From Patescibacteria group bacterium (GTDB lineage Bacteria; Patescibacteriota; Patescibacteriia; 2-12-FULL-57-11): a stretch of 64,000 bases of DNA. Shown one piece after another: positions 1 to 49,345 of the stretch. The notes under the pieces are model-generated. The model saw nothing but the letters and a program-made list of their open reading frames with translations, searched no databases and was not told where the DNA came from. The stretch spans positions 462,647 to 526,646 of the forward strand of contig SCUL01000002.1 of NCBI GenBank assembly GCA_004297205.1, in the 5' to 3' direction. The stretch's first letter is position 1, and each line of letters begins with the position of its first letter. The translations under genes were made by a program, and so were the position numbers.

Positions 1-2649
1 CGAGCCGCCGCTCGCGGACGGTTGGCCGGGCGTCGAGGGCGCGGTCGTGTCGATCACGAGCGCTTTTGCGTTTCCGAGCGACCCGGCTGCTCCGGGCGAG
101 GCCAACGTGAGCGTCGCGTTGTTCAGCGCGGCGTCCTTGATGGTGCCGGAGTTGAGCGCGAGCGAGTTCGTGGCGACGTAGTCGAGGTCCGCGGAGGTGT
201 CGCCGGCAACGACGGTGTAGTTGAAGGTGAGCACGGTCGAACCGGAGCCCGAGGCATAGTCGACAGTTTCGTCCGGGGTGCCGGTCTCAAGGGTGATCTG
301 CGGGGTGCCGACGACCGTGACCGCCTCGGTGAAGGTGACGGTGACGGGGACGACCTGGCCCGTGGCGTATGAGCCGTCCGCAAGCGTCGAGGAGACGGCG
401 GAGACGGTGGGCGCGGTCGTGTCGATCACGATGTTCTTCGCGTTGCCGAGCGATCCTGCGGCGCCGGGCGAGGCCAGGGTGAGCGTTGCGTTGTTCAGCG
501 CGGCGTCCTTGATCGAACCGCCATTCAGGGCGAGGGAGTTGGTGGCCACGTAGTCGAGGTCGGTGGAGGTGTCGCCGGCAACGACGGTGTAGTTGAAGGT
601 GAGGACGGTCGAACCGGAGCCGGAGCTGTAGTTGACGGTTTCGTCGGGCGTGCCGGTCTCGAGCGTGATCTGCGGAACGCCGGTGACGGTGACCGCCTCG
701 GTGAAGGTGATGGTGACCGGGACGACCTGGCCGGTCGTGTATGAGCCGTTGGCAAGCGAGGAGGAGACGGCGGAGACGGTGGGGGCGGTCGTGTCGATCG
801 TGAAGGTGTCGGTCGTGACGGCGCCGTCGGCGGTCGTGTTCGCGTTCGAGTCCGTGGCGCGGACGTTCATGGTGTGCGAGGCGTCCGAGAGCGCCACGGC
901 AACGGTGCAGGTGAAGGGCTCGACCGCTTCGTCGAACGCGGCGTCGTCCGCGGTGCAGGCGCTCCAGCTGCCGGCAGTCCCGTCCATCTGGAATTGGACG
1001 GCAGAGACCGTGCCCACGGCTTCGGTGGCGGTGCCGGTGAGCGCGGGCGTCGAGTCGTTGTTCGGATCCGGAGACAAGGCCGTCAAAGAAATGCTCGGAG
1101 GGGTCGTATCGAACGCGCTGAACGCAATGGACACGTCCTGGAAGGTGGGCGTGTTCGCGGATTCGGAGGTGAGGGTCACCTGATACTGGACGTATCGGTG
1201 GCCGTCGGTGACGCAATTGTTCGAGGAAATGTCCGTGCCGGAGACGATGGCGTTGCAGGAAGAGAAGGCCGTGGCGCCGACCATGGTGGCGCTGTTCGAG
1301 GTGCGCGCCTTGAGGGTGGTCGTCGCGACGCCGTCCGTGTTCGCGGTCATAGTCCCCCACGCGCTCAACTGTTCCGTGTCGAAAATGGAGGAGGTCAGCG
1401 TGCCGGACGAGGCATACCGTTCTTCCTGCGCGGCGTACGTGGCGTAGGTATCGGCTTCGGATTTGTAGTCCGCGGCAATCCAGGGGGTGGAGAGGGTGGA
1501 GCTGGAGACGCGAAACTCATCTGCCTTGCCGTCAATGGCGTAAAGAGTGCTGGTGGCGCCGAATGTAAAAGTTAACCAGTTTATCGGAGAATTTTGTGTC
1601 TTCGGACCTGCCCGGAGCGTGCCATTCTTATAGAATCTTCCCTGGGTACCGTCGTATGTGTACGTAAACTTCTGCCATTGGTTGAGGGCGATGGTGCCGC
1701 CGGGCAGTTCAGCTGGAGCAAATCTGGTAGTGACATCCGTGCCCGCATAAACAGCGCCGACCGAGTCGCCGTGGAAGATGAAAGCACCCCAGCCGCCGCC
1801 GGCACTGGCAGTTATCACCGGGTTATAATTCTTGTTCGAAAGCGGATACAGCCAAAAATCAACGGCGAATGTTGTTTTTGGTCCGCTCAAACCTGCAATT
1901 TGAACGCTGTCGTCAACCCCATCATACGACTCTCCCCCGTCAATAACTCCGGACGTCGTAGGACTGGGTTCGGTCGCGGATGTTTTCGCGCCGTTGAAAC
2001 CGTTGGATGTGGAATCGATCGTGGCAGTCCCGGACGTTTCAGAAAAATGCTGGACGGTCATGTACGTGTTGTTCCACACGTTCGATGCGGACTGTGCGCT
2101 GCTCGTGGTCGTGTTGCCGTAGTAGACGTAGATGTGGTCGGTGCTCGACGATGAGGCGATCTGGGGCACCTTCACCCAGACGGTGGACGTCGAAGTCTCA
2201 TCCCACTTCTCGATTTCGTAGGGAAGGAGCGTCACGCCGTCCGAGTCGGTGAAACGGATGTCCTGGCCCGAGTTCTGCGTGTTGGCGTAGTCCACGCGCG
2301 AGGAGTTGAGCGCGACAAGGACGGGGAAATTCGTCAGGTTCTCCGCCTGCCCCGAGTTGTCGAACGTGATCTTCCGGCGATATTTCAAACTCGTGTCGTA
2401 CCAAGCGGTGGTCGTCGCGAGTGTGAGCTGGCCGGCAGAAAAAGAAACGACGTTCGAACTGGAATCGAACTTCGTCGTGTCCAACCAGCTCGTCTGGCCG
2501 GATCCCCCGGACCAGTTCGTCTGCGTCCACGGGCTCGTCGCGGCGGAAGCGCGCGGGACCAGCGAGGAAAATTGCGAGACGAGCAAAACCTGCGTGACGA
2601 GCATCACGGCTGCCAGCAGGGAGAAAATGAGGGAGTATTTCTTTGACAT
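1..2649 (-). CDS. Large secreted surface/adhesin-like protein, partial (runs off window start). Signal peptide, DUF2341/LamG-like N-terminal region, C-terminal tandem Ig-like repeats.
   Basis: Own translation of the minus strand from ATG at 2649: [22 protein letters not shown]... (signal peptide), then motifs DIRFTD...LPYEIEKWD...VWVKVP...IYVYYGN typical of DUF2341. At the other end, repeated [42 protein letters not shown] Ig-like units. No stop before position 1, so it is absent from the ORF track. High GC3. Confidence 0.6.
60..810. repeat. Two tandem ~372-375 bp DNA repeat units (~90% identical) inside the adhesin gene, each encoding one Ig-like domain.
   Basis: gttgttcagcgcggcgtccttgat occurs at 118 and 493. 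gtcgaggtc..ggaggtgtcgccggcaacgacggtgtagttgaaggtgag occurs at 181 and 553. The repeats may continue beyond the window start. Confidence 0.7.
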
Positions 2650-2740
2650 TGCCACACTTCTCGTCTTTAAATCCCTTGAATTTTACACCTTACCGAAGCA
2701 GTGTACCACTTTTGGATTTTGAAGGAAAACGCGGTGTTCA

Positions 2741-3031
2741 TCACATTTTTTTGAACGCCGTCCCGTTGATTTTTTCGAGCGTGGATATCGTGAGCGAAAC
2801 GGAGGGATTGTCCGTATTTTTCAAGGTCATGCGACCCCCGAACCTTTTTTGCAGCGGCGTGAGGAATTCGTCTCCCCAGGAAGGCGAAAACGTGCTGACG
2901 CCGGCAAAATCGACAAGGATGTCTTCCTTGCCGTTCAGGCCGTCCAACGTCGGCAAAAAAGCCGCGAGGGCCTCTCTTCCCGCCTGACGGGACGTGAGCA
3001 CGGAACCGAATTTTGCAATGAAGATGGTCAT
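2741..3031 (-). CDS. STAS-like small protein (DUF4325-like), 96 aa.
   Basis: ORF MTIFIAKFGSVLTSRQAGREALAAFL...EDILVDFAGVSTFSPSWGDEFLTPL matches the DUF4325 STAS-like pattern (vvLDFeGV..ssSF.DEf). Stop of the upstream GHKL gene lies 7 nt before its start. Lower GC (~52%). Confidence 0.55.
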   Translation of the reverse strand: MTIFIAKFGSVLTSRQAGREALAAFLPTLDGLNGKEDILVDFAGVSTFSPSWGDEFLTPLQKRFGGRMTLKNTDNPSVSLTISTLEKINGTAFKKM

Positions 3032-3038
3032 GCGCCGT

Positions 3039-3773
3039 TCAATATTGGATGAACGCCAACGAACCGCGGATCGGCACGTCGGCTTTCTTCATGAGGAATC
3101 CCGGTTTGCCCTTCCGGATTTCAAGCACCGCATCACCGGATTGGAAGGTCAGATCCGCCTCGGACTTCGCAAGCGCATCCTTCACGTATTTCAAACCGTT
3201 GCCCCGATGTTCCGGCGCCCTCCCCGTGATGAATTCGGTGAAAGCCACGCGCAACGCTTCCTCGTCGGTTTTGAGACCGGGCCGTATCCGATGCAGCGTC
3301 GCAAAAACACCGACCCCGCGATCCGCAAGGACAACGACCCGTTTCCCCGGGTCATGGGCGAAAAAGACGCCCGGGAGATCCGGCCAATTTCCCAAGTTAT
3401 GATCGAAGGAGTTGTTGCCGATTTCCCCAACGGAAGAGGAAATGAGCGACGCAATGCCCTGAAGCGCGGGGTTGGCGTCCAACTCATGCGCCATGCGCTC
3501 GTAACGCGTTTTGAATCGGTCACTCGTCGAACAATAAAAGTCGTGTTCCGGGGGGTACGACTTTTCCGCACTGACCCATTCCTGGGCAACCCGAAAGATG
3601 CCTTTGGTCTTTCTTCCCAAGTCCGACAGCGCGTAATACCGATGGCCTCCCGGGGAAACGAAGGTTGCCTTAAAGGTTCCCTCGTTATGCCAACGCCGGA
3701 GAGTCGCCACGGAAACGCCCAGATATTTGGCCGCTTTCGTGATGGAAACAAGATTTTTTGCGACTTTCCCCAT
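3039..3773 (-). CDS. MerR-type HTH fused to a GHKL (histidine-kinase-like) ATPase domain; RsbW/SpoIIAB-like serine-kinase fold.
   Basis: Start at ATG 3773 (MGKVAKNLVSITKAAKYLGVSVATLRRWHNEGTF = MerR/excisionase-type HTH). C-terminal part has GHKL boxes: EIGNNSFDHNLG (N-box), VVLADRGVGV (G1), RGNGLKYV (G2). The longer in-frame ORF to 3884 is less likely. GC ~54%. Confidence 0.6.
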   Translation of the reverse strand: MGKVAKNLVSITKAAKYLGVSVATLRRWHNEGTFKATFVSPGGHRYYALSDLGRKTKGIFRVAQEWVSAEKSYPPEHDFYCSTSDRFKTRYERMAHELDANPALQGIASLISSSVGEIGNNSFDHNLGNWPDLPGVFFAHDPGKRVVVLADRGVGVFATLHRIRPGLKTDEEALRVAFTEFITGRAPEHRGNGLKYVKDALAKSEADLTFQSGDAVLEIRKGKPGFLMKKADVPIRGSLAFIQY

Positions 3774-3783
3774 ATCTGCAGAA

Positions 3784-3812
3784 AGTATACAAAAACTATA
3801 CAAACTTGTCAA
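3784..3812 (-). promoter_or_regulatory. Sigma70-like promoter for the HTH-GHKL gene with TTTGTATA direct repeats over the spacer and -10.
   Basis: Minus strand reads TTGACA-17nt-TATACT; about 10 nt further downstream is the ATG. TTTGTATA copies (plus-strand tatacaaa at 3786, 3797, 3816) overlap the spacer and -10 in MerR-operator-like placement. AT-rich (~38% GC). Confidence 0.45.
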
Positions 3813-3909
3813 ACCTATACAAATCTGTACATTTTGTGAAAATCGCTCATCCTCCCGACAAAAACGAGGTTGCCACGGCGCCAAAAAACGGGCAGGATAG
3901 CGGCAGTTT

Positions 3910-3984
3910 TCGCCCCTAGCTCAACGGATAGAGCTCCGGTCTTCAGAACCAGTGATGGGAGTTCGATTCTCTCAGGGCGCACCA
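3910..3984 (+). tRNA. tRNA-like gene with a Trp-type body but anticodon UCA (loop CUUCAGA); CCA encoded. Acceptor stem non-canonical as read.
   Basis: D-arm GCTC-AACGGATA-GAGC; anticodon arm CCGGT-CTTCAGA-ACCAG (one C.A mismatch); T-arm GGGAG-TTCGATT-CTCTC; 3' AGGGCGC-A-CCA. The 3' half closely resembles E. coli tRNA-Trp (GGGAGTTCGAGTCTCTC). The 5' strand tCGCCCCta pairs imperfectly with AGGGCGC, and G37 is unusual for a UCA anticodon. Confidence 0.5.
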
Positions 3985-4020
3985 GCCCTCCAACCTCGAC
4001 TTTCTAAAAGCGAGGCGGGG

Positions 4021-4096
4021 CGGCTGCGGATCGAACCGCGCCGCATCCCCGCGCGAGCGGGGCTGTCGATGCAGCCGAACGTCCGCCCCCAGTGCA
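4021..4096 (-). other. GC-rich tRNA-like cloverleaf element (non-canonical): 7-bp acceptor-like stem enclosing three hairpins, one carrying GGTTCGATCC.
   Basis: Reverse complement GGGGCGG...CCGCCCC-G-CC forms a perfect 7-bp closing stem. Internal hairpins: GGCTG/CAGCC, CCCCGC-TCGC-GCGGGG (tetraloop, no anticodon loop), and TGCGG-[CGCGGTTCGAT]-CCGCA (11-nt loop). It is not a canonical tRNA. Confidence 0.3.
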
Positions 4097-4172
4097 TGGC
4101 GGAAGCCGGACGCGACCCGACAGCACCTATGCGGCACGGCGAGAGACGCAGCCGGCCCGCCGAGCGAACCCT

Positions 4173-4827: not shown

Positions 4828-4858
4828 TCAAAAACCGTCCCGCCTTGGCGGGACGGTT
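4828..4858. terminator. Bidirectional intrinsic terminator hairpin between the convergent cyclase and pilT genes.
   Basis: aaaaccgtcccgcc-ttgg-cgggacggtt. Confidence 0.5.
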
Positions 4859-4867
4859 GTGTGCGTA

Positions 4868-5948: not shown

Positions 5949-6638
5949 TCACCAACCTTTCACGGCGATGGCCTGTTCGGCGGCGGCGACCTGCGCTTCC
6001 TGTTTGCTCGTGCCTTCGCCCTTGGCGACGAGCTGGTCGCCGAGGAAAATGCCGACGACGAAATGCTTGGCGTGATCGGGGCCCGACTCTTCGAGCACCT
6101 TGTAACTCGGCGTGATGCCGAGCTGTTCCTGCGCCGCTTCCTGGAAGCGGCTCTTGGGGTCGAGATACAGCTGGTGCTCAAGAATGTAGGGCAGGCGCAC
6201 CAAGAGCTTGGCGTCGATGAAGCCGCGGCAGGCCTCCATCCCCTGGTCGAGATACAGAGCGCCGACGATGGCTTCGAACGCGTTGGCCAGAATGTACTGG
6301 CGCGCCTTGCTGCCGGCGTCCTTGGATTCGCCGCGCGAGAGATAGAGATGTTCTTCGACCTCGAGCTCGCGGGTCACCTCGGCGAGCATCACCGCGTTGA
6401 CCAGCGCCGCGCGCCAGTTGGTGAGTTCGCCCTCCGGATTGGGGTAGGTCCGGTAGAGGTATTCGGTGACGACGAGCTCGAGCACGGCATCGCCCAGGAA
6501 TTCGAGCCGCTCGTTGTGGCCGAGCGGAAACTCCGGATGCTCGTTCAGGTAGGAGCGGTGCACCACGGCTTGGCGCAGGTGCTCGATGTTTTTGAACTTC
6601 ACGCCGAGGCGTGCTTCCAACACGGAAAGGTCACTCAT
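5949..6638 (-). CDS. rnc: Ribonuclease III.
   Basis: RNase III signature [20 protein letters not shown] plus C-terminal dsRBD. TGA stop at the expected C-terminus. Confidence 0.9.
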
Positions 6639-7461: not shown

Positions 7462-7566
7462 AGGTGTCAGTTCCCGGCCACTATAACCGAGGTCCGTGAG
7501 CCTGGCAAGTCCCCCGGGTTGACCTGGCCCGCCTCCCGTGGAAAGGTGCCGGGCAAGGAGGTAGCG

Positions 7567-8211
7567 ATGATTCCGGCACTTGCACGGTTTCTACACCTGG
7601 CGGCGGAGGGAACCCGCAAGATCCGCCGCAGGACCCAGTACGACGAGGTTCCCGAAAACGAGCGGACACGCGTCGAAACGCATCTGCTCCAGACGGCCTG
7701 GCTCGCCGCAGCGATGATCGCCATCGAGCGCGCGCACGGAGAACCGGCCTTCGATCCGGTGCGCGTGCTGACGGCGACGGTCCTGCACGACATCGCCGAG
7801 TCGCGCATCGGGGACGTCCACTACGACGTCAAGGCCGACCCGCGCATCAGCGCCATCCTGCGCGAGATCGAAAAGGAATACGCGCACAAGATGTTCTCGC
7901 GTCTCCCGGACCAGGTCCGCGCCGCGTTCACGGACGCCTACGCAGTCGAGGACGAGCGGGGGAAGACGGCGGACGGCGACTTCTTCAACGCCGTCGAGCG
8001 CCTCGGCTACGTCTACGACACGCTGCAGTGGATCATCGACGGCAAGAAGACCTTGCGCAAGGTCTACGACAACCAGCACGAACCGCTCGTGAAGCTGATG
8101 GACCGCTTCGTCTCGGTGCGTCTGCTCTACGAGCCGATCCGGTCGTTCGTCGAGCAGCAGCTCCAGGAGTACCGCCACGAGCAGAAGATGCAGAGCATCG
8201 AGGACATGTGA
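7567..8211 (+). CDS. HD-domain phosphohydrolase (YfbR-like 5'-nucleotidase family).
   Basis: Strong SD AAGGAGG 7 nt upstream of ATG 7567. HD motif VLHDIAESRIGDV. The upstream part of the track ORF 6586..8211 is antisense to nusB/rpmF. Confidence 0.7.
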   Translation: MIPALARFLHLAAEGTRKIRRRTQYDEVPENERTRVETHLLQTAWLAAAMIAIERAHGEPAFDPVRVLTATVLHDIAESRIGDVHYDVKADPRISAILREIEKEYAHKMFSRLPDQVRAAFTDAYAVEDERGKTADGDFFNAVERLGYVYDTLQWIIDGKKTLRKVYDNQHEPLVKLMDRFVSVRLLYEPIRSFVEQQLQEYRHEQKMQSIEDM

Positions 8212-8229
8212 CGTGTCCAGGATGCGAAA

Positions 8230-8262
8230 GCGCCGCCCCCGGCAGGGAGCGGCGCCACTTTT
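8230..8262 (+). terminator. Intrinsic terminator after the HD gene.
   Basis: gcgccgcccccggcagggagcggcgc followed by a T7 run. Confidence 0.5.
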
Positions 8263-19400: not shown

Positions 19401-19411
19401 GCGGAAACGAA

Positions 19412-19436
19412 ACGCCCCCGCCCAGCGGGGGCGTTT
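19412..19436. terminator. Bidirectional terminator between pilB and tsaE.
   Basis: aacgcccccgc-ccag-cgggggcgtt followed by a TTT run. Confidence 0.55.
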
Positions 19437-19855
19437 TACGTTGCGGTAACCGTTCGCTTCTTCCCCGTGTGATTGAAGACGAGGCGACGCGTTCCCTTCG
19501 GTAATACGCGGGTTACTTTGTCAGCCCACTCGATGGCCACGACCATGTTTTCTTTGCCGAGGTAGTCGGCGACGCCCAACCCCGTGAACTCCGCGTCGGA
19601 CTTCAGACGATAGGCGTCGAAATGCACCAGCTGGTGGATGCGCGGATGCGGTGCGGCATGCACGTGCATCAGCGTGAAGGTCGGACTCGTGATTTTTTCG
19701 GCGACGCCCAAATGTTTGGCGAGCCGCTGCACGAAGGCGGTCTTCCCTGCGCCGAGCGGTCCTTCGAGCGCCAGCACTTCGCCGCCGCGCAATTCCCCTG
19801 CCATACGCTTGGCAAAGACATCGAGTTTGGCGAGTGTGGAAATATCCTGCGTCAT
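19436..19855 (-). CDS. tsaE: tRNA t6A biosynthesis ATPase TsaE.
   Basis: GPLGAGKTAFVQ P-loop; YjeE-family size. Confidence 0.8.
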   Translation of the reverse strand: MTQDISTLAKLDVFAKRMAGELRGGEVLALEGPLGAGKTAFVQRLAKHLGVAEKITSPTFTLMHVHAAPHPRIHQLVHFDAYRLKSDAEFTGLGVADYLGKENMVVAIEWADKVTRVLPKGTRRLVFNHTGKKRTVTAT

Positions 19856-25229: not shown

Positions 25230-25339
25230 GAGGCTACCATGGACCCGTACCTCAACAGTTGAGCGCTGATCGGAACGTCGATCCTTTCGCTACCGGTCGA
25301 CGTCCCTTTCAGGGGCGAGTGCAACTCTCGCACGGTTCA

Positions 25340-25372
25340 CCCAAAACACCCCGCCAAGGCGGGGTGTTTTGT
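25340..25372 (+). terminator. Intrinsic terminator after tRNA-Glu.
   Basis: caccccgcc-aagg-cggggtg followed by TTTTGTTTT. Confidence 0.5.
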
Positions 25373-25425
25373 TTTCAGCCAAGGGACTCGAACGAAGATA
25401 AAAAGTATCCGCCGGGAGGGGCGGA

Positions 25426-37736: not shown

Positions 37737-37742
37737 GCAACC

Positions 37743-37775
37743 AAAAACGTCCCGCCAAGGCGGGACGTTTTGTTG
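37743..37775 (+). terminator. Intrinsic terminator after vanW-like.
   Basis: acgtcccgcc-aagg-cgggacgt followed by TTTGTT; near-identical to the hairpin at 4828. Confidence 0.55.
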
Positions 37776-37972
37776 GGCAGAAGCTCCTTCATGTGGAACA
37801 GCGCACAAGAAGATACATTGTAGAAAGCGTCGAGCCCGGAGGCCAGAGACCCCTACGATCCATCTCCATGCTTGTCGTGTGCGCTGGTCGCCACGAAGGA
37901 GCGAGGCGTGAATCTACCACACCCCGGTGAAAGTGTCAAGGGGGTTCAAACAACCTCCGTTTCGGTCCGTTT

Positions 37973-49140: not shown

Positions 49141-49217
49141 AGGGCGTGTAGCTCAGTTGGTTAGAGCGTTACACTGATAATGTAAAGGTCGATGGTTCGA
49201 CTCCATCCACGCCCACC
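49141..49217 (+). tRNA. tRNA-Ile (anticodon GAU) in the 16S-downstream spacer; CCA encoded.
   Basis: GGGCGTGTAGCTCAGTTGGTTAGAGCG, anticodon loop CTGATAA, T-arm GGTTCGACTCC, 3' end CACGCCCACCA. Followed by the hairpin atcccccg-taaata-cgggggat (49218-49245). Confidence 0.85.
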
Positions 49218-49345
49218 AAAATCCCCCGTAAATACGGGGGATTTTGAATAGAGATGAATGGTTTCCCGCAAATCGCTGACCTCTGGTTGCCCTGGCTATG
49301 CCCCACTGTGATCAACACTGAGATGTTCTGAGCAGACTGATCGAA

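Follow-up and report, generated by a model that had tools for sequence, protein, structure and literature searches.

A 148-bp inverted-repeat insertion, and not a tRNA-like RNA gene, between a degenerate tRNA-Arg and a cyclase gene of a Patescibacteria group bacterium

The stretch of DNA analysed here (64,000 nt, hereafter the window) contains, close to its left end, a junction between a tRNA-Arg gene (3910-3984, plus strand) and a gene for a class III adenylate/guanylate cyclase-domain protein (TAK05058.1; 4173-4823, plus strand), which are separated by a spacer of 188 nt. In this spacer a sequence-only reading had described a 76-nt tRNA-like cloverleaf on the minus strand, hereafter the element; the tRNA gene itself, which adjoins the element at a distance of 30 nt on the plus strand, was overlooked. 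The window begins with the 5' part of a large secreted-protein gene (1-2649, minus strand; >883 aa) that continues beyond the window edge and carries two tandem repeats of about 300 nt at 37-708 (85% identical, period 372 nt). It is followed at 2744-3773 (minus strand) by a module of two genes, one for a MerR/excisionase-type HTH protein (244 aa, with a C-terminal part that matches phrog_3364) and one for a STAS-like DUF4325 protein (96 aa). The module has a GC content of 56% and a near-consensus promoter (TTGACA-17-TATACT, 3812-3784), and is absent at this position in all relatives. All of the DNA to the left of the tRNA-Arg, comprising the MerR-HTH, DUF4325, and surface protein genes, is non-syntenic with every relative examined; a 96-aa gene in one of them (L018) is unrelated to the DUF4325 gene of the window.

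The tRNA gene, which is 75 nt long and is labeled 'SeC' by ARAGORN, is a degenerate ortholog of the tRNA-Arg(UCG) of this clade. Its anticodon has become UCA by a change of G36 to A, and three positions of its stems no longer pair (U1.C72, C7.A66, and C28.A42), whereas the full set of 21 pairs is retained in all seven relatives. The block CGCACAATATG, which is conserved upstream of the gene in the relatives, is altered here as well. The gene resembles the allele of L003 in its 5' half and that of L002 in its 3' half, and all of its anomalies except that at position 72 lie on a single Logan contig (574-3975). The two Logan contigs concerned (L001 and L013, both from SRR8426588) both end within the tRNA, where they share only 21 nt (3955-3975), which is consistent with a branch in the assembly graph arising from a 3' half common to co-occurring relatives. 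If active, a tRNA with the anticodon UCA would be a natural arginine-inserting opal suppressor, and 3910-3984 may be expressed as such. Against this stand the three broken stem pairs and the stop codon usage: TGA, with 21 of 40 long ORFs, is the most frequent stop and also terminates the cyclase gene, so that an efficient suppressor would be costly, and for this reason we read the gene as a probable pseudogene.

Orthologous loci were recovered by using the adjacent cyclase gene as an anchor. In each of the five related lineages examined, whose flanking genes share 80-86% DNA identity with the window, an intact tRNA-Arg(UCG) stands upstream of the cyclase gene, and neither the element nor any other part of the extra DNA described below is present in the orthologous spacer. 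The cyclase gene starts 12-20 nt after the tRNA-Arg in L002/L014-16, L003, L021, and L022. In L017-L020 the gap is instead occupied by an unrelated spacer of 89 nt (L017:321-409, the same in L018-L020), which contains two perfect small palindromes, CCGAGCTCAGCTCGG and CCGAAGCTCAGCTTCGG, and represents hairpin-forming DNA that another lineage has acquired independently at this very site. The additional length of the window spacer is almost entirely made up of positions 4014-4161. Judging from the orthologous spacers, this insert arose only in the present lineage, within a tRNA-Arg(UCG)/cyclase spacer that is normally very short. Two 'long' cyclase homologs of 268 aa (P0124 and P0127) were considered as further carriers of the insert and were dismissed, as their extension is the tRNA-Arg gene read as an ORF. 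Elsewhere in the same region, about 700 bp between rpmF and gyrA (7515-8231) are absent from L002 and L003; they contain an ORF that resembles an HD-domain phosphohydrolase by its sequence motifs alone.

The insert comprises 148 bp with a GC content of 76%, compared with 64% for the window. It is bounded by two 33-nt arms (4014-4046 and 4129-4161) that are 79% complementary, lie 82 nt apart, and form the longest local inverted repeat of the window. The left arm, which reads ATGCGGCGCGGTTCGATCCGCAGCCGCCCCGCC on the minus strand, holds a T-loop-like motif; the right arm repeats it in inverted form at 26 of 33 positions and has CGAGAGA in place of TTCGATC. Between the arms, the centre (4047-4128) contains a small CCCCGC-GCGA-GCGGGG hairpin at 4047-4062 and, in the minimum-free-energy (MFE) structure of the plus strand, a longer imperfect hairpin at 4062-4127. 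The tetranucleotide GCGA flanks the insert directly on the left (4010-4013) and occurs again beyond the right arm, after a gap of 2 nt (4164-4167); the two could be copies of a 4-bp target-site duplication, but can also pair as an extension of the hairpin. An assembly artefact can be rejected, because the insert is found at 100% identity in an independent Logan contig of SRR8426588 (3955-5513); a second one spans 574-3975.

According to fold predictions, the whole spacer forms one long imperfect hairpin with a free energy of -100.6 kcal/mol on the plus strand (z = -4.9) and -109.4 kcal/mol on the minus strand (z = -4.0). No shuffled sequence was as stable, and the outer stem of the large hairpin has a pairing probability of 0.5-0.9. 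When the fold was compared between the strands, the values were about equal (-99.2 vs -100.9 kcal/mol). Since both strands are equally stable, the structure points to an inverted repeat at the level of the DNA rather than to a strand-specific RNA under selection, although z values of -4 to -5 are also expected of a functional structured RNA.

The bases of the proposed cloverleaf are indeed present on the minus strand, but at 4014-4089, that is, 7 nt away from the position originally given (4021-4096). The segment has a GC content of 79%, takes in the left arm of the larger inverted repeat and a portion of its centre, and reads GGGGCGGACGTTCGGCTGCATCGACAGCCCCGCTCGCGCGGGGATGCGGCGCGGTTCGATCCGCAGCCGCCCCGCC, or, divided into its parts, GGGGCGG AC GTTC GGCTG CATCGA CAGCC CCGC TCGC GCGG GG AT GCGG CGCGGTTCGAT CCGC AG CCGCCCC GCC. 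The building blocks that had been described were all found. A perfect 7-bp stem GGGGCGG/CCGCCCC joins 4083-4089 with 4017-4023 and is followed by GCC, three small hairpins can be drawn inside it (GGCUG/CAGCC, CCCCGC-UCGC-GCGGGG, and GCGG/CCGC), and the T-loop motif GGTTCGATCC is present. In the position of the anticodon arm there is a 6-bp CCCCGC/GCGGGG stem with a UCGC tetraloop and not a 5-bp stem with a 7-nt loop, and the initial conclusion that the element cannot be a decoding tRNA is upheld. In the register of a tRNA, only two of the five T-stem pairs form, so that the T arm does not have the 5-bp stem and 7-nt loop of a tRNA either; an alternative 4-bp T stem would enclose a loop of 6 or 11 nt and leave 2 nt unpaired before the acceptor strand. 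The 3' end is GCC(T), compared with a discriminator base plus CCA in tRNA. Perfect 7-bp inverted repeats that span 65-80 nt, the spacing found in tRNAs, occur 132 times in the 64-kb window.

Folding did not favor the four-way junction. At its MFE (-46.0 kcal/mol) the 76-mer adopts one irregular rod with the 7-bp stem as its closing helix, whereas the cloverleaf as drawn and two variants of it reach only -34.9 to -37.2 kcal/mol, 9-11 kcal/mol above the MFE, and have ensemble probabilities of 2.6e-9 to 1.1e-7. Three hairpins are present in only seven of 607 suboptimal structures within 6 kcal/mol. An 87-nt segment folds no better than its dinucleotide shuffles do, with z values of -0.88 (minus strand) and -0.65 (plus strand). 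The 7-bp stem has a probability of 0.99 if the RNA is exactly 76 nt long, but drops to a pairing probability of 0.000 whenever 4129-4161 is part of the folded sequence. What had been drawn as a cloverleaf is an artefact of pairing up stems in GC-rich DNA.

Searches for RNA genes gave the same picture. ARAGORN with default settings and Rfam at the gathering score identified three tRNAs in the window, none of them on the element, and an Rfam scan at E<=10 over 501 nt and 186 nt returned no tRNA, tmRNA, or other credible match to it. A covariance model (CM) built from seven tRNAs of this Patescibacteria clade scored the element at 9.2 bits (E ~2 over the window), in contrast to 73-82 bits for the three real tRNAs; the element ranked 17th in the window, below 13 non-tRNA sites that are mostly coding, and fell short of the 29-bit gathering threshold of the tRNA family (Rfam RF00005). 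Only when the ARAGORN threshold was lowered to 90% was a structure reported here, and this was a different, 95-nt class-II 'Ser(gct)' fold at 4017-4111; at the same setting the program produced eight false positives in the 64-kb window and about 4.5 per Markov-shuffled copy. A functional cloverleaf was therefore rejected, with folding, shuffles, Rfam, the clade CM, and ARAGORN all against it.

The element shares with canonical tRNAs and tRNA pseudogenes (RF00005) its length, the 7-bp terminal stem, and the GTTCGATCC motif, and it is 59% identical to tRNA-Lys(CTT) over its whole length (46 of 78 positions). It differs from them in failing the covariance models, in the tetraloop stem that replaces the anticodon arm, in the broken T stem, and in the missing CCA end. 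The tRNA-like domain (TLD) of tmRNA and the bacterial Y RNA YrlA combine an acceptor-like stem and a T-loop motif with the lack of an anticodon loop. The element resembles them in these three features, but has no Rfam match at E<=10 and no G3.U70, is not conserved, and was not seen in an smpB or rsr context. The known RNA families considered (tmRNA TLD, Y RNA, 6S, SRP, and riboswitches) were all dismissed for want of an Rfam match at either the gathering score or E<=10.

A discrete minus-strand RNA of about 76 nt with a four-way junction and a T-loop, acting as a processing signal, mimic, or regulator, thus has next to no likelihood and is largely refuted. It could appeal to the tRNA-like length, to the perfect terminal stem, whose 3' strand is separated from GTTCGATCC by the canonical distance, and to the high probability of this stem in the exact 76-mer. 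These features are outweighed by the energetic penalty of the cloverleaf (probability <=1e-7), a shuffle z value of -0.88, a CM score inside the background, a T stem that is broken in the tRNA register, and the lack of conservation in the orthologous spacers; moreover, the sequence right of the element contains no predicted promoter-like site for the minus strand. The same observations speak against the suggestion of a tRNA-like processing signal or a regulatory RNA for the cyclase gene. A cloverleaf drawn by hand in DNA with a GC content of 79% is no evidence of a tRNA-like RNA.

What the left arm does contain is a short similarity to one particular tRNA. Its minus strand at 4037-4020 (GGTTCGATCCGCAGCCGC) is identical in 17 of 18 positions to the T-arm/acceptor 3' end of the tRNA-Lys(CTT) of the clade (GGTTCGATCCCCAGCCGC). 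Among 12,652 background segments of 76 nt taken from the window, the highest local score was 25 compared with 31 for the element, and the highest global score 46 compared with 48. The match is short, with a BLAST E value of 0.1, and could be coincidental; given the generic T-loop motif, we estimate the chance of the Lys-specific extension at about 0.003. In L002, L018, and L021 the tRNA-Lys(CTT) gene adjoins tRNA-Arg. It is intact in L018 (707-831, minus strand), whereas in L019, which belongs to the same species, its last ~12 nt are replaced (353-477, minus strand; CCGACCCACCA instead of CCGCTGCACCA). Beyond the replaced end, L019 continues with different DNA that includes an extra tRNA-Arg(TCG) at 289-361 (minus strand). 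This chimeric tRNA-Lys has the appearance of a gene broken at its 3' end by (site-specific) recombination. The position of tRNA-Lys beside tRNA-Arg in the relatives, together with this breakpoint, makes a tRNA-derived fragment in the left arm plausible.

Such a fragment could also mark the endpoint of an integrated island, and the sequence-only reading had named an attachment-site remnant as one option, citing the low-GC module on the 3' side of the element. In canonical tDNA islands, the target gene is regenerated, the displaced fragment lies in direct orientation, and an integrase is present (Islander, PMC4383910). Like the displaced fragments in that collection (PMC4383910), the similarity found here is a short T-arm/acceptor 3'-end stretch located between genes at a tRNA hot spot, with non-syntenic flanks. 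It differs from them in that it lacks an integrase, an intact partner gene, and a direct repeat, is accompanied by an inverted copy of itself, and resembles tRNA-Lys only locally, in the 17 of 18 positions. No recombinase domain was found at 1-12 kb, where the genes encode the surface protein, DUF4325, MerR-HTH, cyclase, PilT, RNase III, NusB, L32, and GyrA, and an interpretation of the left flank as an integrase island was rejected for lack of a recombinase. The 64-kb window contains no intact tRNA-Lys and no direct repeat of the tRNA-Lys-like fragment; its sole repeat is the inverted one, 82 nt away. The argument from the low-GC module fails also on geometry, as a displaced fragment on the minus strand would place the island on the side of the core cyclase-pilT-rnc-nusB-gyrA genes, which are syntenic in the relatives. 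It is therefore quite improbable that the element is the regenerated target or a displaced fragment of a tyrosine-integrase island, despite the similarity to the tRNA-Lys 3' end, the non-syntenic left flank of 56% GC, and the breakpoint in L019. Of the attachment-site proposal, the more general part fares better: a remnant of tRNA-related recombination fits both the tRNA-Lys match and the breakpoint.

The size and the terminal inverted repeats of the insert are, alternatively, those of a small transposable element. A MITE-like, non-autonomous element with 33-nt terminal inverted repeats and a 4-bp GCGA duplication, inserted into the tRNA-Arg/cyclase spacer, is a possible though unlikely identity. 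Its length of 148 bp, the 79% complementarity of its termini, the GCGA on both sides, and the clean 'empty site' in the relatives would all fit, and the elevated GC content suggests a foreign origin. The different palindrome-containing insert of L017-L020 at the same site also agrees with it. However, the right GCGA does not abut the arm but lies 2 nt beyond it, and a hairpin extension would explain the tetranucleotide just as well; a parent IS was not found either. Membership in a MITE or REP family presupposes multiple copies. The insert resembles MITEs and REP-like palindromes in being about 150 bp long, intergenic, and GC-rich, with terminal inverted repeats and equal folding of both strands, in its presence or absence between relatives, and in the possible 4-bp duplication, but differs from both in being single-copy in everything searched.

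No second copy was found in the 64-kb window or in 148 kb of related loci, and a repeat family within the window was rejected on this basis. A scan of metagenome contigs that required both termini returned two unrelated chance matches, one inside a coding region (L011) and one in an unrelated palindrome (L012). Scans of viral contigs with two patterns and a blastn search of plasmids yielded no matches. The insert is thus a singleton across the window, the related loci, metagenome contigs, viral contigs, and plasmids. One of its reading frames, compared with 1.84 billion representatives, gave a single weak match, with five short stretches at 35% identity, that was judged spurious without reading its sequence, and the other five frames, concatenated and searched against 5.8 billion proteins, gave none. 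With no credible protein homolog of its five essentially open frames, a captured gene fragment or a repeat with spurious ORF calls was discarded as well. It is very improbable that the insert belongs to an undescribed family of mobile palindromes of Patescibacteria, with termini derived from the 3' end of tRNA-Lys and a habit of inserting beside tRNA genes, in analogy to tRNA-derived SINEs and MITEs, although the other palindromic insert at this site in L017-L020 hints at recurrent targeting. If further copies existed in the full genome, they would favor a MITE, and the insert would be a small mobile element, in a phylum in which such elements are poorly catalogued.

The position of the insert directly between the tRNA and the cyclase start also raises the question of a function in the RNA. 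The short spacing of 12-20 nt in the relatives suggests that tRNA and cyclase gene are co-transcribed from the tRNA promoter. If the insert is transcribed, this would most likely be from the plus strand, within a tRNA-Arg-to-cyclase transcript, where it would give the cyclase leader a single long, imperfect hairpin and not a cloverleaf, and would serve at most as a passive RNase III target or stabiliser. A stronger proposal is that the plus-strand hairpin is a lineage-specific, cis-acting structure of the cyclase leader, namely a processing or stability element or an insulator from the upstream tRNA. Its strongly stable fold, the implied co-transcription, and the proximity of an RNase III gene (5949-6638) would agree with such a role, which we nevertheless regard as doubtful: the hairpin is conserved in no ortholog and has no Rfam match, its stability shows no strand asymmetry, it lacks the T-run of a terminator, and the cyclase start lies outside the structure.

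The 76-nt element is, in summary of its architecture, the left half of a 148-bp inverted-repeat insertion and not an RNA gene. With moderate confidence, we interpret this insertion as a neutral scar, without a dedicated function, that recombination or the activity of mobile DNA has left at a tRNA hot spot. A fragment resembling the 3' end of tRNA-Lys would have been captured at this hot spot and would then have been partly duplicated in inverted orientation. Set against the scar interpretation are that the insert is known from one sequence and that neither an integrase nor a direct repeat is present at the locus. The locus is visibly rearranging and decaying, and in this Patescibacteria clade the tRNA-Arg/cyclase junction is a hot spot at which hairpin-forming DNA has been inserted at least two times and tRNA genes have been rearranged or lost. 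The insert, an ordinary palindromic orphan that bears a short trace of tRNA origin, matters little beyond annotation.

Other palindromic DNA occurs in the window. The second-longest local inverted repeat (37783-37902) has 28-nt arms that are 82% complementary and 64 nt apart, and is unrelated in sequence to the element. Furthermore, an intrinsic-terminator design that consists of an A-run, a stem of the CCCGCC-AAGG-GGCGGG type, and a T-run recurs after several genes and tRNAs (4832-4861, 19406-19440, 25339-25373, 37740-37774, and 49214-49248). The terminator at 4833-4858, flanked by the cyclase and pilT genes in convergent orientation, could act for the two of them.
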